Source: Minisyncoccia bacterium (GTDB lineage Bacteria; Patescibacteriota; Minisyncoccia; Phycocordibacterales; Phycocordibacteraceae). From it: DNA of 44,923 bases. Positions 24,228-39,179 of this stretch are shown here, piece after piece. Numbering within the stretch: the stretch's first letter is position 1; each line of letters opens with the position of its first letter. Where the stretch lies: the NCBI GenBank assembly GCA_038228545.1, contig JBBRPE010000001.1, positions 1-44,923 of the forward strand, given 5' to 3'. The position numbers were made by a program, and so were the translations under genes. The notes below the pieces were generated by a model. That model did no database searches. It saw nothing but the letters and a program-made list of their open reading frames with translations, and was not told the DNA's origin.

Positions 24228-24232
24228 GTCAC

Positions 24233-24263
24233 AGAAGGGCCGCGCTTGCACGCGACCCCTTCT
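24233..24263. terminator. Terminator-like hairpin after fmt
   Basis: AGAAGGG.CGCG...CGCG.CCCTTCT. Confidence 0.6.
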
Positions 24264-24554
24264 CCTTTGTTACTACAGACGCAAAAACGGATTGAACCGA
24301 ATCTGCTTCCAGCTATTGGTTGCGATGTCGAAGCCCACCACGCATCCGGGCATTGCCTGTGGCTTTTGAGGCAGACTCAATGGCTCGCGTCGTGTGCCAT
24401 GACGTGAGCTCGTAGAGCCGCTGTATATAGTCTTCAGCGGCAACCGACTGCCTTCGCGCTCAATGTCGGTCTTGCATGCGTTCCTTTTTCTCATGGCACA
24501 TTCCTTTCGTGTCCTGCTGCCGGAACACACAGTACCGTATCGACAACAATAGTG

Positions 24555-24917
24555 CTACACACCAAATCGGAATAGATTTTTAAATCGATTACCCTCTTTC
24601 CGCAATATACTCTCGCGTTTTTTCTTTGCTACACGGAGTTCGCGATTAAGTTCTCCGATCATTGTGTCTACAGCCGTGCGAATGGAGTCGGATTCAGCCT
24701 TCGCGTAATGGCTTATACCATCTACGGTGAGATGAATGTCCGCATACCAAACGTTCCCGTTTACGTGCGCCTGTGTGATTTTACCGAGATCTACATACGC
24801 AAGTGCAGGCGTATCACGCTTGCCCAGGAATTTCTGTAACGACTCAAGTTTCCGTGTCGTTATTTTCTGTATGTCGGGAGTGATTTCATAATTGGTACCT
24901 TTGAATTGTATGTTCAT
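24555..24917 (-). CDS. hpf: Ribosome hibernation factor (HPF/RaiA family)
   Basis: MNIQFKGTNYEITPDI...AKAESDSIRTAVD...KLES pattern of the S30AE family. Confidence 0.85.
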   Translation of the reverse strand: MNIQFKGTNYEITPDIQKITTRKLESLQKFLGKRDTPALAYVDLGKITQAHVNGNVWYADIHLTVDGISHYAKAESDSIRTAVDTMIGELNRELRVAKKKRESILRKEGNRFKNLFRFGV

Positions 24918-24965
24918 GTGAAATCGATTAGCTCCTAAGACTCATTCCACTATAGCGTACTCCCC

Positions 24966-25205
24966 TTACCCGTATTTCTCGTGAAGATAGGCCATTATGT
25001 CGTCTGATTCATACATAGACACGTCGGTCTCATCGTCCACCATATAGGGCATCTGCTTCTTTCCGCCAAACTCCACAAGTTCTGCCGCAAACACCGGGTC
25101 GTGAACATCTTTGAGCACCAGCGGCTGTCCTGTACCTCGGGCGGCTTCGACGGTCTTTATACAAAAGGGGCACTCAGGATTGATATAGAGCGTAATCATA
25201 TTCAT
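24966..25205 (-). CDS. Glutaredoxin / GST-N-like protein
   Basis: CPFC motif; GGKKQMPYMVD; MYESDDI. Confidence 0.88.
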   Translation of the reverse strand: MNMITLYINPECPFCIKTVEAARGTGQPLVLKDVHDPVFAAELVEFGGKKQMPYMVDDETDVSMYESDDIMAYLHEKYG

Positions 25206-25281
25206 GTAGTATACCCGTTGCCGATTCGGTGATTTCCGCTAGAATACGACAGTCCTCCTACGAGGACATATCTCTACCTAT

Positions 25282-25353
25282 TCCGCGGTAGCTCAGCGGT
25301 AGAGCGGTCGACTGTTAATCGATTGGTCGCAGGTTCGATCCCTGCCCGCGGAG
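25282..25353 (+). tRNA. tRNA-Asn (GTT)
   Basis: Acceptor TCCGCGG/CCGCGGA, D-arm GCTCAGCGGTAGAGC, anticodon arm GTCGA-CTGTTAA-TCGAT, T-loop GGTTCGATCC; CCA not encoded. Confidence 0.97.
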
Positions 25354-25359
25354 CATCAA

Positions 25360-25388
25360 GAAAGAGCCATGTAATACATGGCTCTTTC
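25360..25388 (+). terminator. Terminator hairpin after tRNA-Asn
   Basis: GAAAGAGCCATGTA-A-TACATGGCTCTTTC; near-copy at 28398-28426. Confidence 0.85.
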
Positions 25389-25415
25389 GCGTTGGGGGGA
25401 GAACAGGAATATTAC

Positions 25416-26423
25416 TTATGGCGATTCAAATAAAGAAGGTAGCTGAACCAAATAGTCTTGGAGCTTTTTAACGTCCTCAAATCGATTTGTTTCGTGCCAG
25501 TACCGTAATTTCATGTAGGCGTTCACTACCACTGCGGCCTTGAGCAGATTCTCATCGTATTTTTCATCTCCAAAATAGCCCTCCACTATTTGCCTACCTG
25601 GTTCATTCAATCCACTCCTTACTGCTAAGACTAGCGTTCTAGCCAAGTCCATATAAGGGTGGTTTAGAAATGGAATCGGATCAAACACCGTAAGAGGGTC
25701 AGTTGCAAAGATGTTCGCTATAGAAAAATCACTGTGGCCATACACAGTACTCGAGTCAGAGCCTATTTCTCTAAAGAGAACCTCTTGTGCCTCTGGTAAT
25801 GAACCATGTGCCTCATCTTTCAAAAGTTCATGCTCCTTCACGTATAAGAATTTATCTTGCAAAGAAGACCTGTCTAACCAAGTTTTAATATCCGGGAATT
25901 CAGGCTGGCCGTTTATTATGGATCCATAGCCGTTAGCTGTTGCCGTATGCATCTTCCTTAAGACTACGCCCATTTCTACATATAATTTTTTTCCTATAAG
26001 TTGCTCTACGGTATGCGCATGACGTAACGGGAGAGCATCAATATATTCCATCAGTATATAAGGGTGACCGACTATCTCTCCGGCTTCGATAACGTGAGGG
26101 ACACTCACTCCAACCTGTTCCCAAGCCTTAAGGAAGACCGCTTCGTTTCGTGAGAATTCTTTTTTAAGAGGAATCTTTAAAACATATTTCTCATGTCCAG
26201 TGTCCAGAATACTAACCAGCGATGATATGCCGCTGTGCGAGAAAGTAACCTCTATCGGTTTTCCGTTAAATAGTTTGTGTTCAGCAATGAAACTTGCTAT
26301 CTCGCGAGCGAGCAGTTTTCTCTTTTCGTCAAACTCCTTATCGATCTCATACCCGGTAAGTCGAGGTTCGTTTAAAAAGACTATCGATTCGGTATTTCTT
26401 GTGGCTTCGGGTTCCATGGGCAA
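25416..26423 (-). CDS. Aminoglycoside phosphotransferase (APH)-like kinase
   Basis: YVLKIP, VSVPHV, YILMEYI, HSDFSIANI and VFDP kinase motifs. Confidence 0.85.
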   Translation of the reverse strand: MPMEPEATRNTESIVFLNEPRLTGYEIDKEFDEKRKLLAREIASFIAEHKLFNGKPIEVTFSHSGISSLVSILDTGHEKYVLKIPLKKEFSRNEAVFLKAWEQVGVSVPHVIEAGEIVGHPYILMEYIDALPLRHAHTVEQLIGKKLYVEMGVVLRKMHTATANGYGSIINGQPEFPDIKTWLDRSSLQDKFLYVKEHELLKDEAHGSLPEAQEVLFREIGSDSSTVYGHSDFSIANIFATDPLTVFDPIPFLNHPYMDLARTLVLAVRSGLNEPGRQIVEGYFGDEKYDENLLKAAVVVNAYMKLRYWHETNRFEDVKKLQDYLVQLPSLFESP

Positions 26424-26444
26424 ATTATACCAGTGAGGCTTATC

Positions 26445-26552
26445 CTATACTGCCGTACTTTCCATCAGCCTAATCATATAGAGCCGCTGGGCCATCTGAT
26501 TTATGTATTCTCTATTGAACAGCAGCGGTATATTTGCGTGATGGTCTGGGAA
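26445..26552 (-). repeat. Type I junction tail copy 1 (start-less 35-codon frame)
   Basis: Translates FPDHHANIPLLFNREYINQMAQRLYMIRLMESTAV*. Confidence 0.85.
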
Positions 26553-26672
26553 AATTGCGTCTCGCCGTCGAGTCCCACTTCCCTGTCGGGTGGGTGCTTA
26601 GTAGTACTGATGCTCTGTGGGTTGCACGGGAGTAGGAGTAGAACCTTTGGTGTATGGGACGATACTGGAACT

Positions 26673-27173
26673 TTACTTAATTCTCTGCCATACAGACAAA
26701 AAGTATATTAAAAGAGCAAAAGAAAAAAAAGCAAGTGCATAAATCCATGGAATAAGATTGAAAGTAACTAGACCTATGTGAACAAATGCTATCCAAAAAT
26801 TCAAGGAGAATTCAAAGACAGAAGGCCATCCCACAATTTTAACTACAGAGGCATATGAACCTGCTGGCCATGCAGTACATAGAGCTACAAAGAATAATCC
26901 TACAAAAGACAGAACTTTTTTGTGCAAAAGAAAATAACCACTGCTAGCAATTAAAAATGCTCCTATGATTTCGAGAAGCCATGGGAGAATATGCATGAAT
27001 ATCCCAAACACTGCATACCCACGTATCTGAGGATAAGTCTTTATAAATGGGAAGATGATTGAAAACACTACAAAATTAAGACTAGCGGCACTTAAGAAGC
27101 TTATTACTAACGCGAGTGCAAAAAACAATAGTCCTTTCATGGGTTTAGGTTTTGTTATAAGTATAACAAACAA
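26673..27173 (-). CDS. Hypothetical integral membrane protein
   Basis: 166 aa, ~4 TM segments, AT-rich; start may be the internal ATG (MKGLL). Confidence 0.65.
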   Translation of the reverse strand: MFVILITKPKPMKGLLFFALALVISFLSAASLNFVVFSIIFPFIKTYPQIRGYAVFGIFMHILPWLLEIIGAFLIASSGYFLLHKKVLSFVGLFFVALCTAWPAGSYASVVKIVGWPSVFEFSLNFWIAFVHIGLVTFNLIPWIYALAFFSFALLIYFLSVWQRIK

Positions 27174-27187
27174 GTCTTGCTGGAAGA

Positions 27188-27295
27188 CTAGGTATCAAGC
27201 CTCTCCATCGCTCTGATGAGATACAACTGTTGAGCCATTCCGCTCATGTACTCCCTATTAAATAGAAGTCGTATATTAACGTGATGTTCGGGGAA
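27188..27295 (-). repeat. Type I junction tail copy 2
   Basis: Translates FPEHHVNIRLLFNREYMSGMAQQLYLIRAMERLDT*. Confidence 0.85.
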
Positions 27296-27458
27296 AATTC
27301 CCTTCCCGTGTCGAGTCCTGCCCCCCCTGCCTTGTGTTCACTTGCTCGAACTAAACACGTAGAGCTAAGACCCAAGCGGGAATAGAACCTTGAAGTCTAT
27401 GCCAGGCAGACTGGGACGATGCTGGAACCTTTTTGAGGTTCGCTTATAGTAATAGACA

Positions 27459-27992
27459 ATGAAATCACTCTTCCTCATCCTTGTCGACGGCCCAATGGGC
27501 TCCGGCAAAACGACTACCACAAAACTACTCAGTCAGAAGCTGCCTGACGCAGCCCGAATTGCGTTTCCCGACATCAAACGCCTTATACCGAATTATAAAG
27601 AGAACGAGAAAACTCTTCCTGTAATCCGAGAGGTAATGAAGGTAATGATTGATAAGTATCTAGAACTTGATACAAGCGTAATCGTTGAACAAATAGCAAA
27701 AGCCGATGGTATTGAGATACTCAAAGGTATTGCCGCAAGACATGGAGCTAAATTCTTTGCTTACAGGCTAAGCGCACCTAAGGAAGTTCGAATGGAACGG
27801 GTGAAAGAAAGAACTCGTGGAATGATGGAGATTCCAGAATTACCTGAATCAAAAGTCTTAGAATTGAAAAGTTACTTTGGGCCAAATGACGAGTTTTATA
27901 TAATTAATCCATCAAACCTAGTTTCAATTATTGATACTCAAGAACTTGGTCCAGAACAGGTTGTGGATGTCATAATCAATAACATTTCCTGA
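27459..27992 (+). CDS. P-loop small-molecule/nucleotide kinase (AAA_33-like)
   Basis: Walker A GPMGSGKTT; lid motif ERVKER. Confidence 0.85.
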   Translation: MKSLFLILVDGPMGSGKTTTTKLLSQKLPDAARIAFPDIKRLIPNYKENEKTLPVIREVMKVMIDKYLELDTSVIVEQIAKADGIEILKGIAARHGAKFFAYRLSAPKEVRMERVKERTRGMMEIPELPESKVLELKSYFGPNDEFYIINPSNLVSIIDTQELGPEQVVDVIINNIS

Positions 27993-28024
27993 AAAGTGCC
28001 GGTAGTCTGAGTATTGAATCTCAA

Positions 28025-28054
28025 ACAGGTTCGAACTTCCTCCAGCCAGTGGAG
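28025..28054 (-). repeat. Type II junction copy 1
   Basis: ACAGGTTCGAACTTCCTCCAGCCAGTGGAG; minus strand reads LHWLEEVRTC. Confidence 0.8.
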
Positions 28055-28122
28055 TAAAATATTAGACTGTCGCCACTTGCAAATACTCCCAAAAACACCT
28101 CAAATTCAATACTGCTGGCAAA

Positions 28123-28230
28123 CTAAGTGCCGGATTTCTCCATAATCCTAATCAAATAGAGCTGTTGAGCTAACTGATTCATATATTCCCTATTGAACAG
28201 CATCGGTATATTAATCTGATGTTCCGGGAG
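28123..28230 (-). repeat. Type I junction tail copy 3
   Basis: Translates LPEHQINIPMLFNREYMNQLAQQLYLIRIMEKSGT*; abuts CCGGGAGCA and a hairpin. Confidence 0.85.
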
Positions 28231-28265
28231 CAAATAGAAACCCCCGAAAGGGGGCTTTTCTATTT

Positions 28266-28392
28266 CTCCGCGGAGTGAGCCTGGGAGGCTCTCGTGTAGG
28301 ATTCGAAGAAACTTATGCGAGCATTTTGTGATTCATAGAGCAGAATCCGCAAAGTGGACAGCGAGTGTAGCTCGAGTGTCCTACCCGCGGAG
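28266..28392. repeat. Fold-back repeat element, copy A
   Basis: CTCCGCGG...CCGCGGAG outer stem matching the tRNA-Asn 3' end; conserved core. Confidence 0.88.
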
Positions 28393-28495
28393 CATTCAAA
28401 AGAACCACGTAATGCGTGGCTCTTTTGCGTTAGATGCTATCGCGAATATAACTTTCTCAGTTTAGAACGCTTTCTTCACTGCTATACTCCGTCTC

Positions 28496-29035
28496 ATGAG
28501 GGAGCGCCCAAAACTTATCATGCTCGGTGGCTTTGCTGCCTCCGGCAAGAGCACTATCGCGGAGCGGTATATTTCAGACCACCCACTTGCGCTTTGCGTC
28601 GAGGGTGACGAGATCATAACCAAACTTGGTCAATGGCGATCGCATATCAAGGAAGCGGTGGAATCCAAATTCTCACTGACAGCATGCATGGCCACGACTC
28701 ATCTGCGTGTTGGATATGACGTGATACTTCCTTTTCTTCTCGGAAATGAAAGTCATGCAGAAATGTATGAGAATCTTGCAACCGAAGCAGGTGCTGATTT
28801 CTTCGAGTTTTACATCTACGATAAGAAGGACGAGGCGATTAAACGTCTGCTTGCACGTGGTTCATGGGGCGAGACAGGACTTCCTCCAATAACCCAAGAG
28901 GACCTTCCGAGAATCGAGCGTTTATATGAGGAGATGATTGAAGCAGTCGCTAAGCGTCCGAATATGATTACGATCGAATCTACAGAGGGTGATATCGAAG
29001 GAACATACAAGGCTCTAATCACGGGACTACCCTAA
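28496..29035 (+). CDS. P-loop small-molecule/nucleotide kinase (AAA_33-like)
   Basis: Walker A GFAASGKST; KRLLAR lid. Confidence 0.85.
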   Translation: MRERPKLIMLGGFAASGKSTIAERYISDHPLALCVEGDEIITKLGQWRSHIKEAVESKFSLTACMATTHLRVGYDVILPFLLGNESHAEMYENLATEAGADFFEFYIYDKKDEAIKRLLARGSWGETGLPPITQEDLPRIERLYEEMIEAVAKRPNMITIESTEGDIEGTYKALITGLP

Positions 29036-29142
29036 ACGGCAGCAACTTTTTCCATCAACCTAATCAAATACAACTGTTGAGCCATCTGTTTCATGTACTC
29101 TCGGTTGAATAGCAAGGGTATATTAATGTGATGTTCTGGGAG
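29032..29142 (-). repeat. Type I junction tail copy 4
   Basis: Translates LPEHHINIPLLFNREYMKQMAQQLYLIRLMEKVAAV*; abuts GGGAGCCA. Confidence 0.85.
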
Positions 29143-29215
29143 CCAAGATTTATTTGGACAAGTTTCATTCGTAATGTAATCTTTATTTACGTCATTTTGA
29201 CGAAGGAGATTACAG

Positions 29216-29371
29216 ATGGGCACTGACCCAAATGTCAGAGGAAAACTCCAGGCTGACTTAGCTCGGGGAATCACAGAGGCCTTACGCCTATATGCTAAAG
29301 AGAATGGGTTTTCCGAAGAGTTTATCATGCAGCAAGCGCGTGACTTGCTTGTTGTGAAGCCTCCGACTTGA
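29216..29371 (+). CDS. Small hypothetical protein (51 aa, not in ORF track)
   Basis: MGTDPNVRGKLQADLARGITEALRLYAKENGFSEEFIMQQARDLLVVKPPT*; AAGGAG RBS; terminator at 29403-29432. Confidence 0.6.
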   Translation: MGTDPNVRGKLQADLARGITEALRLYAKENGFSEEFIMQQARDLLVVKPPT

Positions 29372-29437
29372 TCAACGATGATGTGTCGTGATTTCGTCAC
29401 AAGAGCCCCGCGCCAGCAACGGTCGCGGGGCTACTTT

Positions 29438-29476
29438 TTATACAAAACAGGTTCGAACATCCTCCACCCAGCGGAG
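29438..29476 (-). repeat. Type II junction copy 2
   Basis: Minus strand reads LRWVEDVRTCFV*. Confidence 0.85.
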
Positions 29477-29513
29477 TAAATGAAATCAGCACCCTTGTGG
29501 TGCTTTTTCGTTT

Positions 29514-29642
29514 GCTCCGCGGAGTACGCCTGGGAGACGTACGTGCAGGGATCGAAGAAACTTATGCGAGCATTTTGTGATTCTAAGAACAAAATCCGCA
29601 AAGTAGATAGCGACCGTAGGTCGAGTTCCCTGCCCGCGGAGC
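29514..29642. repeat. Fold-back repeat element, copy B
   Basis: GCTCCGCGG..GCAGGGATCGAA (antisense tRNA 3' end)...TCCCTGCCCGCGGAGC (sense tRNA 3' end). Confidence 0.9.
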
Positions 29643-29648
29643 TAATAT

Positions 29649-29677
29649 TTGACAGATTTAGATAAATGTGATATATA
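29649..29677 (+). promoter_or_regulatory. Sigma70 promoter directly after element B
   Basis: TTGACA-N17-TATATA with TG extension. Confidence 0.7.
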
Positions 29678-29739
29678 GAAAATAGCACGAGCTCTTAAAG
29701 TTCGTTTGTCCTACTCAATTTAATCAAGGGAACGGAAAC

Positions 29740-30207
29740 ATGTGCATCGAAAAATACGAGGCATTCATGACGCGACAGCTCGCGCAAACATCGCCGATTC
29801 GAGCAGCGTTTGAGGGCATGTCGATCGGCAACGATATGGTTGTCGAAGTTGGCGATCTTGTGTGGTGGCCGTGTCGCGGCGAAACTATCCTCCTCGGCGC
29901 AGTTAAGCTTAGAAGCGGAAAATGCCTCGCGCTCGGGTATGAGAACGGTACATTCATGGTGCCGCTCGACTCACGAGAATCGTGGGTACTTAACAGTCTT
30001 CAAGAACTACCACGTCTCGAACTCGAAGACGACCACATCGCAGTCTATTTCACCAACGAACGCTACCTGATGGCAATGCACGCTCGTGAATACGGCACCC
30101 TGGCGCCGCCGTGCTCATGGCGCTATTCGGGAATCGGGTCTGGAGGTTTAACGGCTCTCCGGCAGTTCGAGAAGCATGACATGACCCTAACAGTCGAACA
30201 CGACTAG
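29740..30207 (+). CDS. Hypothetical protein
   Basis: 155 aa; own promoter and terminator (30250-30282). Confidence 0.65.
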   Translation: MCIEKYEAFMTRQLAQTSPIRAAFEGMSIGNDMVVEVGDLVWWPCRGETILLGAVKLRSGKCLALGYENGTFMVPLDSRESWVLNSLQELPRLELEDDHIAVYFTNERYLMAMHAREYGTLAPPCSWRYSGIGSGGLTALRQFEKHDMTLTVEHD

Positions 30208-30285
30208 TCGCTCGAAGAAGCCCGGAGGAATTACTTCCCCGCCGATCTTCCGATGGCCGCTCTCCCCGAGAGCGGCCATCTTCTT

Positions 30286-30320
30286 TTATACAAAAGTCAA
30301 ACATCCTCCACCCAGCGGAG
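30286..30320 (-). repeat. Type II junction copy 3 (degenerate)
   Basis: ACATCCTCCACCCAGCGGAG; minus strand LRWVEDV*. Confidence 0.8.
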
Positions 30321-30352
30321 CCGGTTAGCCCAATCGCCCTTCGTGGCGATTT

Positions 30353-30462
30353 TGCGTTACATGTTCGCGAGTAGGATTCGAAAAATTTCTGCGCGCTTTT
30401 TGCAATGCAAAAATTGCAAAGTGGACAGCGAGTGTAGCTTGAGAATCCTATTTCATTACGCA
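30353..30462. repeat. Fold-back repeat element, copy C (divergent)
   Basis: TAGGATTC/GAATCCTA stem, TTTTTGCA/TGCAAAAA, AAAGTGGACAGCGAGTGTAGCT identical to copy A. Confidence 0.8.
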
Positions 30463-30521
30463 TTTATGACCTTGACGCTCACCCTTTATTTAGGGTAAGC
30501 ACTTACTGATCGCAAATCTTT

Positions 30522-31649
30522 TTACCAACCAGGTGGAAGTTCCGTCCCCCCACCGGTCATAAAGATACTTTTTGAAAGATCAAGGCAATTAGGAATTGAG
30601 GCTTTGAAATAATCATCGTGACCTACATCGAGAACAAGTCCTGGGTACTTCCATGACTCAGCACCTGCGTACATAAGATCCGAAGGACTATCCGAAACAT
30701 GACCGCGCAACGTTTGATGCGGAGAGCAAGTCGGTACGAATCCAAGAGTATGCATCGTTTCATGCAACATATCAAAATCAAGATACCCAGGATTTGTAGC
30801 AGAAGATGCAAGAAAATTAGATTCACATGGAGCGGCTACAGGATTGCCACCTTGCATATATTCTGCCGCTACGTGCCCCTTCAGATTGGGTGGCCATGCT
30901 CCACCTCCACAACTCGTATTACTATGACCATCGTAGTAAACCGCGTACAATTTGTGCGGATCAATAAATCCTAATTCCCGTAAATGTTTTTCTAGGTCGT
31001 CTCGTACATAGGGGTTTGAACTTGCGCTCGTGCTCCACGGTAAATCGGAGCCTTCTTTAACTGTTTTATCAGTTTGATTCAAGCGAACGAAGGTGACGTC
31101 AAGTGCTCCGTTATGAGTGTCTACCTTCATACCCTGACCTCCGGTCTGCGTACAAAGCCAATCTTCCCAGGAAGATACTGATGTTGCGATGGCACCATTC
31201 GTGTCGTATGCGTGATCAGTCCCATCGCTCGGAAGGACATAGACGATATGAACTTGGTAGCCGGACTGATCGTCAGTTTGGTCAATTGCTGAACGACTTA
31301 CCGGGATTTTAAGTGAAGTTATGCAGGGGTTTATCTCCTTTGTAGAAACTGCTTCAGTTTTAGTGCTTGGTACTGTTGGAATCACAGGCTGGACAGGATT
31401 CTCGACGGGAGGAGATAGTGGAGTCTTTGGGAGAGGTTGAGTTTGTGACGGATAAATAGAATTTGAAACCCCTGTGGTTTTAGGAGACGGAGAGGTGCTT
31501 GCCTGATTATTAATTCGAGTTTGAACTACAGTAACTTCACTGTTCGCCGGAGTTTTTGCAATCCCTAAAAGGGGTACAGGGAAAACAGAATTGATAAACG
31601 AATTTATACCGAGGAACACTATCACTAAGGCATTCTGAATAAATTGCAT
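30522..31649 (-). CDS. Secreted/surface zinc metallopeptidase-like protein
   Basis: N-terminal hydrophobic signal, P/T/S-rich linker, HETMHTLG (HExxH) and SDLMY Met-turn-like motif. Confidence 0.75.
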   Translation of the reverse strand: MQFIQNALVIVFLGINSFINSVFPVPLLGIAKTPANSEVTVVQTRINNQASTSPSPKTTGVSNSIYPSQTQPLPKTPLSPPVENPVQPVIPTVPSTKTEAVSTKEINPCITSLKIPVSRSAIDQTDDQSGYQVHIVYVLPSDGTDHAYDTNGAIATSVSSWEDWLCTQTGGQGMKVDTHNGALDVTFVRLNQTDKTVKEGSDLPWSTSASSNPYVRDDLEKHLRELGFIDPHKLYAVYYDGHSNTSCGGGAWPPNLKGHVAAEYMQGGNPVAAPCESNFLASSATNPGYLDFDMLHETMHTLGFVPTCSPHQTLRGHVSDSPSDLMYAGAESWKYPGLVLDVGHDDYFKASIPNCLDLSKSIFMTGGGTELPPGW

Positions 31650-31844
31650 TTGCTTTAAGTATAACGCTACACAGGGTTTTTCTTCCGTGCCGACTAGTAT
31701 GGAAAGGTGTGGATGGGCACCATGAATGATTTAGGCTGAAACTCTTCAAGTTAGTTCGTGTGCACTAATTCCGACAGAGAGTCGGCATTGTAGTAGATTA
31801 GCGCCGCAAGACGAGGTTCCATTCCCCACTTCTGCGTTTTTCTT

Positions 31845-31880
31845 TTATATACAGGTTCGAACATCCTCCAGCCAGCGGAG
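31845..31880 (-). repeat. Type II junction copy 4
   Basis: Minus strand reads LRWLEDVRTCI*; followed by hairpin 31881-31916. Confidence 0.85.
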
Positions 31881-31933
31881 TAAATGAAAAAAGCGCCAAT
31901 GGCGCTTTTTTCATTTCAGCAGTTGAGAAACGT

Positions 31934-32281
31934 CTATGAGCCAAGCTTCGCGGCCGCTTCAGGGGTTGAGACGGTCTTGCTCATTAAGAAAATCCGGATA
32001 ATCCCCCACGCCACCAGTAGATATACCAGCATGGCAAGAACGGTCGTCCATTCAAATACCGAGCCAGCAACATACGTTCTTGGAAACACCGTGAGGAATG
32101 GCTGAGCGAATGGCCACGTTACTGTGTAAATAAAACTGGCAAACCCGGAGCCTGCATTTGCAGCGGTCATCTTCAATACAAAACGAAAGGCCAGAAGTAT
32201 TTCGATTACGGCTAATATATACCAAACGATCTGAGTCCCACGAAAAATAGGTTTGGTGGTCGGTGAATTGTATGAGTCCAT
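31934..32281 (-). CDS. YggT-like membrane protein
   Basis: IEILLAFRFVLK...FIYTVTWPFAQPF...LAMLVY pattern. Confidence 0.75.
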   Translation of the reverse strand: MDSYNSPTTKPIFRGTQIVWYILAVIEILLAFRFVLKMTAANAGSGFASFIYTVTWPFAQPFLTVFPRTYVAGSVFEWTTVLAMLVYLLVAWGIIRIFLMSKTVSTPEAAAKLGS

Positions 32282-32293
32282 AGGTATATAAGG

Positions 32294-32425
32294 TTAAGTT
32301 AGCAGGCGCACGACAACAATAATCACAACTAAAACGAGAAGCGTATGGATAAGATTACCTCCCAAATGGAAGCTGAATCCTAGTAACCATAGTACGAAGA
32401 CGATGACAGCAATGGTCCACAACAT
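32294..32425 (-). CDS. Lmo0937-family small membrane protein
   Basis: MLWTIAVIVFVLWLLGF...GGNLIHTLLVL, 43 aa. Confidence 0.8.
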   Translation of the reverse strand: MLWTIAVIVFVLWLLGFSFHLGGNLIHTLLVLVVIIVVVRLLT

Positions 32426-32536
32426 AGTGAGAAGGGATTTAGGAGAGTAAGTGACCGGCGTGACATTCGCTGAGCGCATCGACACTAGGAAACAAATGTA
32501 TATCAAAAGTATACACCCCGATTAGGATACCTATTT

Positions 32537-32652
32537 CTCCGCGGAGTACGTCTGGGAGACGTACGTGCAGGGATCGAAGATGTTGCGTGCATTTTGTGAA
32601 GCAAAATCCTCAACATGTACGTTCCCGTAGGGAAAAGTCCCTACCCCCGGAA
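32537..32652. repeat. Fold-back repeat element, copy D
   Basis: CTCCGCGGAGTACGTCTGGGAGACGTACGTGCAGGGATCGAAGA nearly identical to the 5' part of copy B. Confidence 0.88.
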
Positions 32653-32658
32653 CAAGAC

Positions 32659-32686
32659 TTGACAAAAACAGTGAGAGTGCTAAAAT
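32659..32686 (+). promoter_or_regulatory. Sigma70 promoter directly after element D
   Basis: TTGACA-N16-TAAAAT with TG extension. Confidence 0.7.
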
Positions 32687-32723
32687 TTATATTCTGCTCT
32701 TTACATGAAATTAGGAGAATACA

Positions 32724-33368
32724 GTGAGCACACACGGAAATCGAAAAACGCCCGAAAATGTTTCGGTCGAGACTCCGGGCGGCTACAAACTCGCTTCAAC
32801 CTTCCTGGGTCGTGATTTCGTCACGCCCGAGGAAGTGATGCGTGCGCGGCGCGGTGTCGTCTACACCGACGAGCAACTCGCCCACTTCGTCGAGACCATT
32901 CCGACGGAAGACGTCCTTCGGTGGTGTCAGGAAAACAACTTCGTTCTGATGCCTCTGCCGCCCCTACCGTTGTCTCTCCTCGAGGTGCGCGGACTCAACC
33001 TCAGCCTGTTCTTCTCGAAGATTGGCGGCTGGTACGCCGACCACGCCGAGAAGTTTTCGACGGTGACAAAGACCGGCAGTGGCTGGCTCCTGGTCGGCAA
33101 GCAACAACTTCCAAAGCCCGTCACGAATATGTGGGACGAAGTGCGTCCCACATGGGCGTACGTGCCAAGCGCGGTCGAGATGTGCTGGATGCTGACCACC
33201 TTCTACGAGGTCTATGGGATCCGCCTCTACGGCAGCACCTACGTCAGGACTTCGAGCGTGGCCACGCACGGTAAGGTCCGGCTTGGCGGATTCCAGCCGC
33301 AAGGCATCGGTATTCACTTCACGAACGAATCCTTCGATATGCCTTTCGCTTGGGCGAGAACGCCCTGA
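32724..33368 (+). CDS. Hypothetical protein
   Basis: 214 aa, GTG start with AGGAG RBS, GC-rich; long terminator hairpin 33404-33458. Confidence 0.75.
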   Translation: MSTHGNRKTPENVSVETPGGYKLASTFLGRDFVTPEEVMRARRGVVYTDEQLAHFVETIPTEDVLRWCQENNFVLMPLPPLPLSLLEVRGLNLSLFFSKIGGWYADHAEKFSTVTKTGSGWLLVGKQQLPKPVTNMWDEVRPTWAYVPSAVEMCWMLTTFYEVYGIRLYGSTYVRTSSVATHGKVRLGGFQPQGIGIHFTNESFDMPFAWARTP

Positions 33369-33461
33369 TCGAAAAGCACGCCGACTCTTCTGAGAACGGC
33401 TTACCGCCCCACGTCGAAACGAAGCCTAACCCCTTCGTTTCGACGGAGGGGCGGTTTTCTT

Positions 33462-33500
33462 TTACACTAAACAGGTTTTAACATCCTCTAGCTAGCCAAG
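33462..33500 (-). repeat. Type II junction copy 5 (degenerate)
   Basis: ACAGGTTTTAACATCCTCTAGCTAGCCAAG; minus strand LG*LEDVKTCLV*. Confidence 0.7.
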
Positions 33501-33572
33501 TCAGACTTTTAATCTAAGTAATGACTCATTTTTAAATGTTAAGATTACTTAACATTACTAAAGATACACTTT

Positions 33573-34067
33573 ATGCACATAAAATTTATCATTGGAGGAA
33601 TTATTGGAATAGCAGTACTTGGATTTGGGTACTACGCTATTTCCCCTGTTTTTAATAAAGTCAAAGTTAACGACGAGCTTCCCGTAAGTACTGCCGGAAA
33701 CACCAGTGTGCCTAGTGCAAACGGCACGACCTCACCCACGAATGAGCCGGCAATGAAAGGTACTGCATCTGCAGAAGTTATGGGAACGCTCGGTCACCCA
33801 GCTTCAGGTACTGTGCGCATCGTGACGGTAAACGATAAAAAATATATTCGTTATGAAAACTTCAAGACAATAAACGGTCCAGATATCTATGTATATCTAT
33901 CCAAGGATCTTGGTGCAAAAGAGTATGTCAGCCTCGGTAAGGTAACCGCAACCGAAGGAAACATAAATTACGAAATTCCTGCCACTGTTAATCCGAACGA
34001 CTACAAATATGTGCTTACGTGGTGCAAGACATTTGGGGTTTTATTCAATTCAGGACAACTCAATTAA
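33573..34067 (+). CDS. DM13 domain-containing membrane-anchored protein
   Basis: HPASGTV, NGPDIYVYLS, GNINYEIP, VLTWCKTFGVLF. Confidence 0.88.
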   Translation: MHIKFIIGGIIGIAVLGFGYYAISPVFNKVKVNDELPVSTAGNTSVPSANGTTSPTNEPAMKGTASAEVMGTLGHPASGTVRIVTVNDKKYIRYENFKTINGPDIYVYLSKDLGAKEYVSLGKVTATEGNINYEIPATVNPNDYKYVLTWCKTFGVLFNSGQLN

Positions 34068-34108
34068 AAAAGGGCTTGTATAACTTGTTGTACTCGGGAA
34101 GCGACTGT

Positions 34109-34170
34109 ACTACCGTCCAGTCACCAGAGCAAATGAACGCACCCCTTCCGGGGTGTTGTTCATTTACTTC
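34109..34170. repeat. Type III junction copy 1 with hairpin
   Basis: ACTACCGTCCAG shared with 37702-37713, then GAGCAAATGAAC...GTTCATTTACTTC. Confidence 0.6.
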
Positions 34171-34218
34171 ACCAAGAACGCCACTGGAACCTTCTCGTAC
34201 TTTCTATAGAATGAACGC

Positions 34219-34785
34219 ATGAGTTTGACCGACCAACAGGCAGTAGAAGCGACCCTACGAGATCGACATGCGTTTTCAATACTTGTTGAGCGATATCAGG
34301 CGCCATTACTTCGATACATTCAGCGTCTCGGAACGCTCGACGCTGACGTGGCTAAAGATATTCTCCAAGAGACGTTCATCAAGGTGTACTTAAATTTAAA
34401 CGATTATAATCCGACGCACCCTTTTAGCTCGTGGGCATACCGAATTGCGCATAACGAAACAATGATACACTTCCGGCGACAAAAGCACCGTCCAGTAGTG
34501 CTCGACCCGGAACAGTACACGACGTTGTTCGAATCCATTCCGGATGAACTGGATATAGAGAAAGAAATTGATGTGGGGCGTACAAGTGTCGATGTTGGTC
34601 AAGCCATCGCAAAACTAAAACCTGTGTATAGAGACATTCTCGTTCTCCGTTTCTTCGAGAATAAAAGTTACGACGAAATTTCATATATTCTTGAAATTCC
34701 GAACGGTACTGTGGCGACAAACCTTGCTCGAGGCAAGAAAGCATTGGCGCTCGAGCTCAAAAATAAGTACATAACTGACATATAA
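34219..34785 (+). CDS. ECF RNA polymerase sigma factor
   Basis: DILQETFIKVY, FSSWAYRIAHN, SYDEISYILEIPNGTVATNLARGK. Confidence 0.93.
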   Translation: MSLTDQQAVEATLRDRHAFSILVERYQAPLLRYIQRLGTLDADVAKDILQETFIKVYLNLNDYNPTHPFSSWAYRIAHNETMIHFRRQKHRPVVLDPEQYTTLFESIPDELDIEKEIDVGRTSVDVGQAIAKLKPVYRDILVLRFFENKSYDEISYILEIPNGTVATNLARGKKALALELKNKYITDI

Positions 34786-34786
34786 T

Positions 34787-35275
34787 ATGGAAACGATGGA
34801 TACATTTTCGGAACAAGTAGAAAAAGAAATCGTGGCACGGGGTGTAACGCCACTTCCCCGCTGGCATTTCCTTGTACGCCGATCAGTATTCTGGACGCTT
34901 GCGGTCTTTTCAATAATCGTCGGAACCATTGCGTTCTCGGCAGCTGACTATGTGTTTTTTGATAATGAAGGAATGAGCGCAGCAACTATTCTTGAGTCTC
35001 CTATTGAGGTAATTGTGCAGACAGTTCCGTTTGTATGGCTTATTGTCTTTGGTCTCTTCGTAGCAAGTGCGTATTTGGGTCTGCGTAAAACCCGTAGTGG
35101 CTATAAATATCGGGCCCTGCTTGCGGTATCCGGCGTCATTGTTGTAACCATTGCTTTGGGAATGCTCCTAAATCTTTTCGATTTCGGGCAGACGGTACAC
35201 TATTACCTCCTCCACCACACAACATTCTATAACGCCCTCATACATTCTAGTGATGACGTACAAGTTCCTTTTTGA
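34787..35275 (+). CDS. Membrane protein, probable anti-sigma partner
   Basis: 3 TM segments; coupled 1 nt after the ECF sigma. Confidence 0.65.
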   Translation: METMDTFSEQVEKEIVARGVTPLPRWHFLVRRSVFWTLAVFSIIVGTIAFSAADYVFFDNEGMSAATILESPIEVIVQTVPFVWLIVFGLFVASAYLGLRKTRSGYKYRALLAVSGVIVVTIALGMLLNLFDFGQTVHYYLLHHTTFYNALIHSSDDVQVPF

Positions 35276-35340
35276 AAGAAAGTTGAGGTGAGGTGCATAC
35301 TACAGATGAGGGTAATACAGCCTTCTTAAGACACAGCCGT

Positions 35341-35625
35341 ATGAAGAATCAAACCAAGCTATTTGCTTTAGCGGGCATACCAGTGGCAATTATCGGGCTC
35401 ACGGCTGCAAGCATTGCATTTGCTGACTCTACAGTCCCGAGTGCGCCTGCTGCCCCCACCCAAGTAACGTCTACAGTTTCAAATTCGACAGACACTGACA
35501 CCGAGACAAACGATGATGCAAAAGTCTCAACTAGTGCATCGTCCTCGGAATCGGATTCTGACGTAGAGACCAATGGCGACGCTACTGGAGCTCAGGAAGC
35601 ACCCGGTACAGAACAGGCAGATTAA
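35341..35625 (+). CDS. Secreted acidic low-complexity protein
   Basis: Signal peptide ending AFA; repeated D.ETN.DA motif. Confidence 0.65.
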   Translation: MKNQTKLFALAGIPVAIIGLTAASIAFADSTVPSAPAAPTQVTSTVSNSTDTDTETNDDAKVSTSASSSESDSDVETNGDATGAQEAPGTEQAD

Positions 35626-35681
35626 TTACCGAACTAACCACGCCAGCGTTGCTGGCGTGGTTAGTTATAACTATTTTAAAC

Positions 35682-36917
35682 ATGCCCGCACTCATTTCAG
35701 AAGGAAGCCCAGCTACGCTTGAAAAGCTTTGGAGTAAAGTACCTGAAGTTACCCTTTTCTTCTGGATTATCAAGGTACTTTGTACCACGGTCGGTGAAAC
35801 TGCTGCTGATTTCTTGAATGTGAACCTGAATCTCGGGCTTACTGTTACTTCGGTAATTATGGGTGTGCTAACGATTGCCGCACTTTTCGTACAGTTTAAG
35901 ACGAAGAAATATACTCCCGTAGTCTATTGGTTTGCGGTGATGCTCATCAGCGTCTTCGGTACCCTCGTTACCGACAACATGAGCGACAACCTCCATATCC
36001 CACTTGAATACAGCACTATCTTCTTCACTATTTGTCTCGCGATCACCTTTGCGGTCTGGTATGCGAAGGAAAAAACACTCTCCATACACTCCATATTCAC
36101 ACGCAGACGAGAAGGATTTTACTGGCTCGCCATTCTCTTTACGTTCGCTCTTGGTACAGCGTCAGGAGACCTGATGGCAGAAAGTCTTGGATTTGGCTAC
36201 CTTACGACGGGCATTATCATCGCATCAACCATTGCTCTCTTTGCGGTGGGATGGCGACTTGGACTGAACGCTATTCTTTCGTTTTGGTTTATCTATATTC
36301 TCACTCGTCCGCTTGGAGCATCTATCGGCGACTTACTATCCCAGTCGAGCGCAAACGGTGGACTTGGTCTTGGTCCGACCACTACTACGATTATCTTCGT
36401 TGCTGGAATTATTTTCGCGGTGACCTATCTCTCCCTCAGTCAGAAAGACGTTGTGCAAAACCCTCAAGCTGAGGAAAAGCCGGACGAGAAGAAGTCGAAG
36501 AGCGCCTTTATACAACTCGCGGTAGTCATTACGCTAGTACTTATAGTTTCAGTTGGTGGATACTTCTGGCGTCACCAACAATTACAGAACGCTGTTCCGG
36601 TAACGAATACAACGGGAACGTCCACGACTATTCAAATCTCTCCTCTTGGTGACCTCTCGAACTTCGTCACCCTGTCTCAAGCAACCCTTACCGCAGTGAA
36701 TGCGAACGACTGGTCGACAGCAAACAGTCGCGTGAACGATATTGAGTCTGCGTGGGATAACGCCCAGGCTCGGTTAAAGCCGATGAACCACGCCAAGTGG
36801 ACGGAGATAGATGGCGCGCTCGATACAGTGTTCCGTGAAATACGTGCTGTACATCCGAATCAGCAAAGCTCAGCGGCAGCTCTTCAAACACTTCTAAAGA
36901 CCCTCACCACGCCATAA
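35682..36917 (+). CDS. COG4705/DUF347-repeat membrane protein with C-terminal helical domain
   Basis: SKVPEVTLFFWIIKVLCTTVGETAAD, TFALGTASGD, TRPLGASIGD. Confidence 0.88.
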   Translation: MPALISEGSPATLEKLWSKVPEVTLFFWIIKVLCTTVGETAADFLNVNLNLGLTVTSVIMGVLTIAALFVQFKTKKYTPVVYWFAVMLISVFGTLVTDNMSDNLHIPLEYSTIFFTICLAITFAVWYAKEKTLSIHSIFTRRREGFYWLAILFTFALGTASGDLMAESLGFGYLTTGIIIASTIALFAVGWRLGLNAILSFWFIYILTRPLGASIGDLLSQSSANGGLGLGPTTTTIIFVAGIIFAVTYLSLSQKDVVQNPQAEEKPDEKKSKSAFIQLAVVITLVLIVSVGGYFWRHQQLQNAVPVTNTTGTSTTIQISPLGDLSNFVTLSQATLTAVNANDWSTANSRVNDIESAWDNAQARLKPMNHAKWTEIDGALDTVFREIRAVHPNQQSSAAALQTLLKTLTTP

Positions 36918-36934
36918 TCACGTAAGATAGGTAC

Positions 36935-37690
36935 ATGCAACGAAGACACCCGTTAGCGAAGGTGCCGGAAATTACCCTGTATTTCTGGATAATTAAAATT
37001 CTCACTACAGGGATGGGTGAAACGACTTCGGATTTTCTTGCTCATGCTCTCAATCCGATAGTCGCAGTGCTTATCGGCGCTTGCGGACTCGTTGTCGCTC
37101 TTATTCTTCAGTTCGGCGTTCGGCGCTATGTGCCCTGGGTGTACTGGCTCGCGGTTGTTATGGTCAGTATCTTCGGCACTATGGCTGCAGACATTCTGCA
37201 TGTGGGCTTCGGGATTCCGTACCTCGTTTCAAGTATTTTCTATGGAATCGTACTCGGAATCATATTCTTATTTTGGTATCTTCGAGAGAAGACTCTTTCG
37301 ATTCACAGTATCTACACCAAACATCGTGAGGCCTTTTATTGGGCGACTGTACTAGCAACATTTGCACTTGGCACTGCCGTTGGTGACATGACAGCCGTCA
37401 CACTTCATCTTGGGTATCTTGCATCGGGTGTACTATTTGCAATCGTATTTATCGTGCCACTCATCGCATATCTACGTTTTGGTGTAAACGAGGTCTTCAC
37501 TTTTTGGGTAGCCTATATAGCCACACGTCCTCTAGGAGCTTCTTTTGCCGACTGGATGGGTGTGTCCGCTGCACGCGGTGGGCTTGGCTGGGGTACAGGG
37601 CCTGTGAGTATTGCTTTAGCAGTAGTGATCGCCGCTTTCGTAGCGTATTTGATGGTCACGCGAAAAGATGTTGAGCGACTCAGGACTTAG
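36935..37690 (+). CDS. COG4705/DUF347-repeat membrane protein (paralog)
   Basis: KVPEITLYFWIIKILTTGMGETTSD, TFALGTAVGD, TRPLGASFAD. Confidence 0.88.
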   Translation: MQRRHPLAKVPEITLYFWIIKILTTGMGETTSDFLAHALNPIVAVLIGACGLVVALILQFGVRRYVPWVYWLAVVMVSIFGTMAADILHVGFGIPYLVSSIFYGIVLGIIFLFWYLREKTLSIHSIYTKHREAFYWATVLATFALGTAVGDMTAVTLHLGYLASGVLFAIVFIVPLIAYLRFGVNEVFTFWVAYIATRPLGASFADWMGVSAARGGLGWGTGPVSIALAVVIAAFVAYLMVTRKDVERLRT

Positions 37691-37701
37691 GAGTAGTCAC
37701 C

Positions 37702-37758
37702 ACTACCGTCCAGCAAGTGGAGCACGAAGAAAGCCTTCTGTAAGACTCTTTCTTCGTG
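37702..37758. repeat. Type III junction copy 2 with hairpin
   Basis: ACTACCGTCCAGCAAGTGGAGCA then CACGAAGAAAG...CTTTCTTCGTG; minus strand LHLLDGSGDYS*. Confidence 0.6.
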
Positions 37759-37780
37759 AGCCATACGGTTTGAGTAGGAA

Positions 37781-38500
37781 TTATTTTCCCATACGCTGTG
37801 CACGTTCTTGAAGTGCGTCCTCGATCGCCTTCTCAGTTTCCGCATAACCTCCCTCCCCTATCTGATCGTGTGTGATATATCCATCGATATTTATTACGTA
37901 CGTGTGTGGCCAGAATTGATTAGCATATGCATTCCAGGTCTGGTACTCATTGTCTTGTACCACCGGATATTCAATGCCGTATTTTTTGAGTGCGTCTGCG
38001 ACATTTGCAGTCACATGCTCATAGGAGAACTCAGGAGTATGCACCCCGATAACCACAAGTCCCTGGTCCTTATATTTTGCATACCAGGAAGTTACATAGG
38101 GAAGCGTACGCTCACAATTTATACAGCTGTACGTCCAGAACTCGAGCACGACAACGTTGTGGCCACGATACTGCGCAAGTGTTATGGCCTTTCCGTCTGT
38201 ATTGAGGTACCCATCGGGCGACACGAACTCGTGTGCCAACTTATACGTAGTTGTCTTTTGTACTGACACGCTTGTTGGTGTGGTCGCTACAGTAGCTACT
38301 CGTGCTACCGGCTTTTGCTCAATTTCGGGCTTGGTAGATGAAGATGTGGTCATGGCATCTTCACTAACCTCAGAAATTGTCTTGGCAGGTGGAGACTGTG
38401 TAATAGGATTCGCGGTCGCGGGTCTGGCACGACTATACATATAGAATCCCGCAACAATGAGCACCCCTAAGACGATTAAAAGTACTGGTAGTAGTTTCAT
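37781..38500 (-). CDS. Membrane-anchored thioredoxin-like (DipZ-type redoxin) protein
   Basis: EFWTYSCINC, GVHTPEF, NQFWP, IGEGGY. Confidence 0.9.
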   Translation of the reverse strand: MKLLPVLLIVLGVLIVAGFYMYSRARPATANPITQSPPAKTISEVSEDAMTTSSSTKPEIEQKPVARVATVATTPTSVSVQKTTTYKLAHEFVSPDGYLNTDGKAITLAQYRGHNVVVLEFWTYSCINCERTLPYVTSWYAKYKDQGLVVIGVHTPEFSYEHVTANVADALKKYGIEYPVVQDNEYQTWNAYANQFWPHTYVINIDGYITHDQIGEGGYAETEKAIEDALQERAQRMGK

Positions 38501-38618
38501 AGAGAGTTAAGTACTGTATCGAGTGTATTCGGCTATGTGTACAATGTAAAGTACTCTTTACATTGTAGGTGGGGAGAATCAAACCTGTCTTGGCGTGTTG
38601 ATTGCTCTCTGATTACCG

Positions 38619-39179
38619 TTAGACAACCTCAGAAAAGGAATGAACAACTGGCCATCGACCAAGACCCGGATTACCGTCACGACGCATTTCTATGATGCGC
38701 ATGGAAGGACACCACTCCGCAACCGATTCAAGCTGGAAATGCGCGTCGTCCACAAAGGTGCAGTCATCCTTCGACTCCTGACATAATCGTCGTATAGTCC
38801 TACCCTTCTTGCGACTGGTGTACTCAATATGCAAATTAGGAAATGCCGAGAGTGCTGAAACAACCTTTGCAGTAATGAACGCACGGACTCCATAGGTAAC
38901 GATAGTGCAGTCGTGTGTCTGTAAAAATACAACCGCATCCGGATATAAGAATTCTTGTAATTCTTCGGGCGTAAATGCAAAGCGACCATGACTGAGGAAT
39001 GTGCCCCACGTGCGCATGAAGTGACGACGACGCGACGTATCGGTACTAGGACGAAAGAACTCAACGAGTGCATCCTTGAGTTGACCAATAACAATAAGCA
39101 CGGGCGGTCGCTTTGCGACCGCTTTCTTAAAAGCCACAGTGTCAAACACCGTTCTATCGAAATCAAGAAAGTATTTCAT
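38619..39179 (-). CDS. HAD-superfamily hydrolase
   Basis: FLDFDRTVFDT motif I, IVTYG, FVDD motif IV. Confidence 0.8.
   Translation of the reverse strand: MKYFLDFDRTVFDTVAFKKAVAKRPPVLIVIGQLKDALVEFFRPSTDTSRRRHFMRTWGTFLSHGRFAFTPEELQEFLYPDAVVFLQTHDCTIVTYGVRAFITAKVVSALSAFPNLHIEYTSRKKGRTIRRLCQESKDDCTFVDDAHFQLESVAEWCPSMRIIEMRRDGNPGLGRWPVVHSFSEVV

Follow-up and report, generated by a model that had tools for sequence, protein, structure and literature searches.

What has assembled the 12.4-kb patchwork of genes between a tRNA-Asn gene and a redoxin gene (37781 on) in the genome of a Minisyncoccia bacterium (GCA_038228545.1)? We analysed the start of contig C1 (JBBRPE010000001.1, positions 1 to 44,923; hereafter the window, all 44,923 nucleotides of it) of this 736,223-bp, 13-contig assembly. 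A first-pass annotation had described the block as an integron-like cassette array, with at least 11 junctions and no local integrase, stacked at the tRNA by a recombinase acting in trans. We consider it likely that the block is an integration hotspot built by repeated insertion of elements that encode a large serine recombinase (LSR), in which the junctions are attR scars of past insertions and the recombinase bodies have been lost.

All 11 junctions previously placed after tRNA-Asn share one orientation. Nine of them are solid; the two at 34109 and 37702 are weak. Family A (A1-A4, placed earlier at 26445, 27188, 28123 and 29032) consists of coding tails of ~100 nt on the minus strand, reading ..(L/F)PEHH(I/V/A)NIPLLFNREYM..MAQQLYLIRLME.. 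to a stop codon (coordinates in Table 1). Family B (B1-B5, placed earlier at 28025, 29438, 30286, 31845 and 33462) is marked by ACAGGTTCGAACATCCTCCAGCCAGCGGAG in four copies and by a degenerate fifth that contains stop codons; its sites read LRW(L/V)EDVRTC(I/FV) and a stop up to GCGGAG, after which a hairpin follows. On both strands of the whole genome, a family A 35-mer with up to nine mismatches and a family B 26-mer with up to five each gave four matches, every one within the locus, and BLAST of the repeat families against the genome found A and B at no place outside it; neither motif, in other words, recurs between core genes. The A junctions are composed of tail, GGGAGC(C) and former tRNA flank, most clearly in A3 (..CCGGGAGC followed by AAATAGAAACCCCCGAAAGGGGG..), and most junctions are followed by a hairpin. 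Terminator-like sites number 22, against 13.2 ± 3.6 in shuffled sequence (including 28241-54, 28405-19, 29488-504 and 34139-56). The two weak junctions have ~15 nt in common, resemble the third tail type described below only loosely, and are doubtful as scars.

The sequence around the anchor tRNA is also repeated within the array, whose GC content spans 0.37 to 0.60. Copies of the tRNA-Asn 3' end occur at 28378, 29627 and 32638, and copies of T_a, the terminator hairpin 3' of the tRNA, at 28399-28431 and ~30325-30363. T_a together with ~25 nt downstream recurs after element C1 (see below) and after B3, and matches the native flank of tRNA-Asn in three genomes of the same genus (G021, G340 and G020). 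An Rfam search of 24000-39000 in E-value mode returned the tRNA as its sole match.

The minus-strand tails had been read earlier as recombinase C-termini, and this is borne out. Compared with longer proteins, the A4 tail found four matches, P0001 to P0004. P0004, from a metagenome, is an intact LSR of 522 aa (PF00239 Resolvase, PF07508 Recombinase, PF13408 Zn_ribbon_recom), and its C-terminus matches the A tail at E 1.4e-8 with 80% identity across 88% of the tail length. P0001 and P0003, two short orphan open reading frames (ORFs), carry this tail too and likewise break before LPEHH; P0002 is a serine-recombinase C-terminal fragment. P0004 ends in ..STQPIG followed by LPEHHINIPLLFNRELMSGLAQQLYLIRVMERVDA. 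When its residues 430-522 were used as query, 68 homologues were found, among which P0004 alone covers the query in full and the rest stop at about residue 490. One of these, P0005, aligns with 63% of residues 430-522 of P0004 at 97% identity and ends in ..STQPIGLRG, which is antisense tRNA-Asn; the break point in P0004, between ..QPIG and LPEHH.., is the point where P0005 switches to antisense tRNA codons (..QPIG, then LRG). The C-termini of the homologues are mostly antisense tRNA codons (..WLRG, ..GLPG, ..WLREQGSNLRPIA), and a minority are true tails of few types. A phmmer search of P0004 against PDB sequences gave nothing at E <= 0.001. Together, these comparisons support the view that the four long tails on the minus strand represent the C-terminal ~35 codons of an LSR. 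The six A tails of the genus share 68-82% nucleotide identity, with proportions of synonymous (pS) and non-synonymous (pN) differences of 0.43-0.91 and 0.08-0.20, respectively, a pattern of divergence as translated coding sequence. The tails thus come from diverged lineages and entered separately, rather than arising by duplication in place, in line with the serial stacking at the tRNA proposed earlier. Another member of the LSR family, P0030, ends in ..GLRWVDQVRTAAA, and the window's B sites read LRW[LV]EDVRTC; the local match of B2 to the P0030 tail covers 9 residues at E=0.55, a likeness without significance. Since the ending of P0030 resembles them, the B sites are probably a second, short tail type of the same family.

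The array itself contains no recombinase, and the earlier statement that neither a local integrase nor an integron integrase is present stands. tblastn of P0004 against the genome returned only the four tails and two distant LSRs on contigs C6 and C4, which are also the two PF00239 matches; the single PF00589 match lies on contig C2 (61612-62142). The two resident LSRs (G000:C6:35596-37500 and G000:C4:62344-63930) both lie at contig ends, and each runs in antisense into a tRNA gene, that of tRNA-Tyr on C6 and that of tRNA-Ser on C4. A genomic recombinase ending antisense in a tRNA, which the first-pass annotation had suggested looking for, therefore exists twice, in both cases in other families (23-30% identical to P0004).

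How a recombinase tail can come to stand without its body is seen in relatives. An LSR match is present in 201 of 301 genomes of the order, a count that takes in every LSR family, with the unpublished genome G273 among the 301. The best 17 loci match P0004 from residue 1 to ~487 only, and in 11 of these 17 the LSR meets a tRNA in antisense at its 3' end (9 Asn, 1 Ser, 1 His); the LSR ORFs of loci L017-L028 end in ..NWLRG or ..WLPG and a stop on tRNA-Asn. Among 80 metagenome loci, an antisense tRNA lies at the LSR end in 40 (29 Asn, 5 Gln, 3 His, 2 Asp, 1 Ser). Most telling is a third tail type (LPLLDTFRTLNW..; LPLLDTFRTLNWTSIKSELQ..; LPLLDTFRT..), which directly follows the LSR body in 11 of the 80; these are intact genes. 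Twenty-five of the metagenome loci extend at least 8.4 kb upstream of the LSR, and in 13 of them this tail is found 9.1-10.7 kb upstream on the LSR strand. From genomes and metagenomes together we obtained 13 complete elements of 6.8-12.4 kb, in which body and tail occupy opposite ends, the body adjoining the tRNA; all 13 have the third tail type, and their far junctions read ..GGGAGC and then flank, often followed by a hairpin. That the body stands antisense at the tRNA, separated by 6.8-12.4 kb from its missing tail on the same strand, supports, as had been claimed for the window, an attP inside the ORF of this LSR family. Because GGAGC(C) is common to both junctions, we infer that the crossover takes place at the tRNA acceptor end. 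Direct repeats of the tRNA end were uninformative as element borders, since the shared core is only ~6-9 nt, and an automated search for inverted tRNA ends past the far junctions missed copies visible by eye, owing to an inserted hairpin. No A-type tails were found in the 17 order loci with their flanks or in the 80 metagenome loci, and ~185,000 species genomes yielded two loci with such tails, G340 and G020.

Two of the loci deserve description for their gene content. A complete 9.3-kb element (L071:2137-11530) carries a type III restriction-modification pair (N6_N4_Mtase, ResIII) and four ORFs without a family, with no recognisable replication gene; LSR elements can thus move defence genes. 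On a 59.8-kb metagenome contig (L088:6252-20060), an intact, tail-bearing LSR lies near glycosyltransferases and a second serine recombinase, and beside a C5 DNA methylase and two genes for TraG/VirD4-like coupling proteins.

Part of each junction, missed by the first-pass annotation, is a separate structured palindromic element, which we call family C. Copies of 120-138 nt lie at 28256-28393, 29505-29642 and 32534-32653, and 30359-30450 is a partial one. They are composed of an inverted tRNA 3' end, a small hairpin with a TGGGA loop and a co-varying stem, a core and a direct tRNA 3' end. Four copies fold alike, with compensatory changes in 11 of 40 pairs, and family C matches no Rfam family. 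The ends of C copy the adjacent tRNA: in the window, G340 and G348 this is Asn, in G227 an Asn variant, and on contig C3 Trp; C is confined to regions downstream of tRNAs. The order scar, hairpin, C occurs three times in the window and, by eye, also in G340, G283, G300 and G227, and in G348 C directly follows the tRNA. Outside the locus, BLAST of the genome finds C once more, beside tRNA-Trp on contig C3. There (L001:2257-3450) the tRNA and a hairpin are followed by a C element split by a Y1 gene, with a second, decayed C copy next to it. The Y1 (IS200-like) transposase (225 aa, PF01797 at 1.5e-18) has its own 19-bp inverted repeats, and C sequence is locally duplicated around the gene; given these repeats, the gene is probably a secondary insertion, and together with the duplication they suggest that it entered C rather than moving it. 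C may be a small RNA gene, a hairpin element recognised by a protein, or a module that restores a 'tRNA end plus terminator' target.

We propose the following course of events. LSR elements would repeatedly insert into the 3' end of tRNA-Asn, or into look-alikes of tRNA ends inside the island. attP would lie within the LSR ORF, 10-40 codons before the stop, in a stretch identical to the acceptor end (GGAGC[C]). Upon integration, the LSR body (~487 aa) would abut the tRNA in antisense, its ORF now ending in tRNA codons (..WLRG or ..GLPG and a stop), and the original tail would be stranded at the far end of the element as attR, beside the old tRNA flank and usually a terminator hairpin, both as seen in relatives. 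The window would accordingly hold 11 attR scars, namely four long A tails, five short B tails and two doubtful ones, marking successive insertions with the newer nearer the tRNA and attB regenerated each time. The recombinase-proximal parts of the elements would have disappeared and the distal cargo stayed behind; the likeliest route of loss would be recombination or deletion between the repeated modules of tRNA end plus terminator, supplied in part by C elements.

Comparison across the genus is consistent with a hotspot at this tRNA. fmt, two small genes and tRNA-Asn form a syntenic block, and the content downstream of it is different in each of 21 loci, so that the region differs in every species of the genus examined. 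None of the window's cargo is common to these loci except for YGGT-like genes, which are present in two; in one homologous case (G021) no B or C junctions were found around the YGGT gene. In G357 and G359, the genes of the right flank (redoxin, HAD-like, DAGK-like) are found again at a distance of 11-18 kb from fmt. Among the 21 loci, five have a different LSR adjoining tRNA-Asn, two an A tail without a body (G340 and G020) and two a B motif (G335 and G357). In three genomes of the genus, 320-565 nt split the tRNA-Asn gene itself directly behind the anticodon, and ARAGORN missed it (G348, L147:16696-16947; G020, L138, reverse complement, 7751/8310; G327, L148, 2324/2647); Rfam identifies the insert in G348 as a group I intron (RF00028, 71 bits vs a gathering score of 50). 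The tRNA-Asn of the window is uninterrupted.

Several observations weigh against the hotspot as we propose it. No body or fragment of the LSR family is left in the array or the genome, although some remains would be expected had 11 elements decayed at random; A-type tails stand without a body in six of six clear cases. No complete element with an A or B tail type was found, which counts against our proposal for the A type, and the intact A-type gene is represented by one protein cluster, known as protein sequence alone. The assignment of B involves ~10 residues and one database protein (E 0.55). The A1 and A2 junctions do not have the GGAGC core and continue into a remnant that resembles a T-loop; crossover or target may not have been the same there as in the other scars. 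An occupied attL is not an expected target of LSRs, and repeated insertion would therefore require attB to be regenerated each time. Finally, the nearest species is 69% identical in Fmt, so that gain or loss exactly at the junctions, which the first-pass annotation had proposed to follow among relatives, is not observable.

The most serious competing explanation is the one with which we started, that small circles of terminator, cargo and tail were inserted serially in trans, making the locus a serine-recombinase counterpart of an integron. We regard it as unlikely, despite the fact that no recombinase body is present at 11 units and that the units measure only 0.1-3.5 kb. Five A-tail units (the APH unit and the kinase unit after C1 in the window, and those of G340, G020 and, with a degenerate tail, G021) share both ends, T_a plus ~25 nt on the left and the tail on the right, around unrelated cargo. 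However, T_a plus 25 nt looks like the native flank of tRNA-Asn in the genus, and the shared left end may thus be host sequence; the recurrence of T_a fits both recombination between modules and mini-elements with conserved ends. A circle closed between tail and terminator would, moreover, carry an attR-like and not an attP-like site, and the units lack the recombinase-side arm of attL (..ATAGGTTGAGTAGA..). Cargo genes occur in both orientations, often with their own terminators, and the genome's two LSRs, at tRNA-Tyr and tRNA-Ser, are only 23-30% identical to the P0004 family. The complete elements of the family measure 6.8-12.4 kb and bring their own recombinase, unlike the small non-autonomous circles of a putative gene-capture platform. 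Among sequencing runs X1, X2 and X3, only X1, which is probably the source sample, contains the locus, as contigs at ~7x depth, and no circle junctions were found in it. One X1 contig joins 29145 to 29429, beginning exactly at the A4 core and skipping 283 nt, the unit of the 51-aa ORF; the shorter side of this joint is 28 nt, in a single contig at 90% likeness from what is probably the source sample, which makes it unreliable, and we do not use it as evidence. A combined scheme also seems to us improbable: in it, the LSR family would be widespread among Patescibacteria, the intragenic attP would let integration and excision swap the LSR tail as a switch of state or directionality, mini-cassettes of tail plus terminator would be shuffled at tRNA-Asn by resident or visiting recombinases in analogy to integrons, and C would regenerate the target.

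Much less credible still is the view that REP/MITE-like repeats moved by a Y1 transposase invaded a native row of genes, the 'tails' being part of the repeat. REPIN/RAYT elements and miniature derivatives of IS200/IS605 are short, palindromic and structured. C is likewise a structured palindrome, with compensatory changes among four copies, and the copy on contig C3 holds a Y1 gene; but the ends of C copy the adjacent tRNA, C is found only downstream of tRNAs, and the inverted repeats of Y1 and the local duplication of C suggest insertion into C. The A tails, for their part, are homologous to an LSR C-terminus with a coding substitution pattern, A and B occur at this locus only and in a single orientation, and the flanking genes are not conserved between species. 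Local tandem duplication and divergence of one junction-plus-gene unit, to which the two AAA_33-type kinase genes and the uniform orientation of the repeats might point, can be set aside almost entirely, because the other cargo families are unrelated, GC runs from 0.37 to 0.60, and the synonymous sites of the tails are nearly saturated with the protein kept, which a non-coding duplicate would not do.

The cargo between the scars consists of unrelated units of 0.1-3.5 kb on both strands, several with their own terminators (Table 1). Pfam supports the names given earlier to the APH, kinase, YGGT, DM13 and ECF genes, and the 375-aa ORF formerly called a peptidase matches no family. Naming the APH-like and kinase genes as resistance genes was rejected, since they score far below NCBIfam cut-offs, and we make no claim of resistance. 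The best sigma-70-like promoter of the region (32659-32686; TTGACA, 16 nt, TAAAAT; 11 of 12 matches, with TG) lies between C4, whose right end it directly follows, and the GC-rich 214-aa ORF downstream. A short repeat (GGGACGAT[A/G]CTGGAAC..) lies past scars A1 (26640-26665) and A2 (27405-27435), and also at G000:C3:50328-50353 and in G020 (L138, reverse complement, 121-151), with ~90-96% identity over 26-31 nt.

Table 1. Features of the variable block in window coordinates; the names of scars, tails and attachment sites follow the interpretation proposed here.
Feature	Position	Strand	Details or basis
tRNA-Asn (GTT), array anchor; proposed present attB (tRNA 3' end plus terminator)	25282..25354	+	ARAGORN; Rfam tRNA 70.9 bits
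Terminator hairpin T_a, 3' of tRNA	25361..25393	+	Homologous to tRNA-Asn downstream region in same-genus genomes
Cargo: APH-family kinase-like, 335 aa	25416..26423	-	PF01636, 9.4e-12; below NCBIfam cut-offs
Scar A1, LSR C-terminal tail	26448..26570	-	..IFPDHHANIPLLFNREYINQMAQRLYMIRLMESTAV, stop; T-loop-like remnant GTCGAGTCCC at 26569
Cargo: membrane-like protein, 166 aa	26673..27173	-	Pfam, no family
Scar A2, LSR C-terminal tail	27191..27313	-	..IFPEHHVNIRLLFNREYMSGMAQQLYLIRAMERLDT, stop; then GTCGAGTCCTGCC
Cargo: P-loop kinase (AAA_33 / Zeta_toxin-like), 177 aa	27459..27992	+	Pfam
Scar B1, short tail	28025..28058	-	Minus frame LHWLEEVRTC.., ending GTGGAG, then flank
Scar A3, LSR tail	28126..28239	-	LLPEHQINIPMLFNREYMNQLAQQLYLIRIMEKSGT, stop; junction ..CCGGGAGC / AAATAGAAA
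Terminator hairpin T0, former downstream flank of tRNA end	28232..28262		AAATAGAAACCCCCGAAAGGGGGCTTTTCTATTT; same type in G340, G348
C1, palindromic tRNA-end look-alike	28263..28393	+	Inverted tRNA-Asn 3' end plus TGGGA-loop hairpin, core, direct end
Cargo: second P-loop kinase (AAA_33), 179 aa	28496..29035	+	Pfam
Scar A4, LSR tail	29035..29154	-	WLPEHHINIPLLFNREYMKQMAQQLYLIRLMEKVAAV, stop; junction ..CTGGGAGCC / AAGATT
Cargo: 51-aa ORF	29216..29371	+	Own terminator 29408-29436
Scar B2 plus terminator hairpin	29447..29504	-	LRWVEDVRTCFV, stop
C2 element	29512..29642	+	
Cargo: 155-aa ORF	29740..30207	+	No family; terminator 30252-30280
Scar B3 plus T_a-like hairpin	30291..30355	-	LRWVEDV, stop
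C3', partial degenerate C element	30359..30450	+	
Cargo: 375-aa ORF	30522..31649	-	No family match
Scar B4 plus perfect 17-bp hairpin	31851..31916	-	LRWLEDVRTCI, stop
Cargo: YGGT-like (115 aa) and DUF5670 (70 aa)	31934..32506	-	Pfam; between hairpin and C4
C4 element	32534..32653	+	
Cargo: 214-aa ORF	32724..33368	+	GC ~0.6
Scar B5, degenerate B copy	33471..33501	-	Stops in frame
Cargo: DM13-domain protein	33573..34067	+	Pfam
Junction 10 (weak) plus hairpin	34100..34165	-	..CTACCGTCCAGTCACCAGAGC; possible decayed tail start
Cargo: ECF sigma factor, two small ORFs, two DUF347 membrane proteins	34219..37690	+	Pfam
Junction 11 (weak) plus hairpin; right edge of variable region	37695..37755	-	..CTACCGTCCAGCAAGTGGAGC

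The arrangement recalls several known systems. Archaeal 'suicidal' integrases of the SSV type (SSV1, pTN3, pT26-2) likewise have the att site inside the recombinase gene, which is split on integration into a tRNA, and their stranded fragments mark captured elements, as here; according to a 2021 review on archaeal tyrosine recombinases, self-gene-disrupting integrases are exclusive to Archaea (PMC8371274). The SSV-type enzymes are archaeal tyrosine recombinases (Phage_integr_3) whose catalytic part is separated, whereas the present ones are serine recombinases (PF00239/PF07508/PF13408) of bacteria of the Candidate Phyla Radiation (CPR)/Patescibacteria, which lose only a non-catalytic tail of 10-40 aa and keep the body as an open frame; for this reason, the integrated LSR is probably not inactivated. 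The tRNA islands built by tycheposons in Prochlorococcus resemble the locus in their serial integrations, older ones pushed inward, and in their partial tRNA copies and degenerate remnants; of 937 tycheposons, 910 have tyrosine recombinases, fragmented integrases are still visible, and the text accessible to us mentions no intragenic attP (preprint 10.1101/2020.12.28.424599). Here, in contrast, 11 scars lie within 12 kb with no integrase fragment, and neither an integrase nor a replication module of the tycheposon type is present in the window.

Integrons, too, are arrays of small unrelated units split by remnants of recombination sites at one chromosomal anchor. Unlike in integrons, there is no IntI, the cassettes are not co-oriented behind one promoter, and recombinase tails and tRNA-end remnants, in place of attC, account for the junctions. 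Phage-type LSRs (phiC31, Bxb1, A118) have the same Pfam domains as the family described here, and use short att sites with a single crossover in a short core. Their attP lies beside the integrase gene, not inside it, and their targets are usually protein genes. The present family differs from them in targeting tRNA 3' ends with an antisense overlap. We therefore view the finding as a variant of tRNA-anchored islands and of the archaeal 'suicidal' integrases; we found no earlier description of a serine-recombinase, bacterial version, nor any literature on serine recombinases with intragenic attP or on such CPR islands, in a search that most subscription journals and supplements lay beyond.

CPR genomes are small, with few recognised mobile elements, and little is known of their routes of gene exchange. 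Our result points to integration of LSR elements into tRNA 3' ends as a concrete and common route of gene flow in these bacteria, and the locus shows how a hypervariable island builds up. A bacterial serine recombinase that splits itself and has a short, strongly conserved tail is in effect a natural experiment on the role of that tail, whose shedding may affect the choice between integration and excision. Serine integrases are tools of genome engineering, and a family with a defined tRNA target and a C-terminus that depends on its state may be useful among them. If the units of the array prove mobile, the locus would represent a second, unrelated solution to cassette capture.

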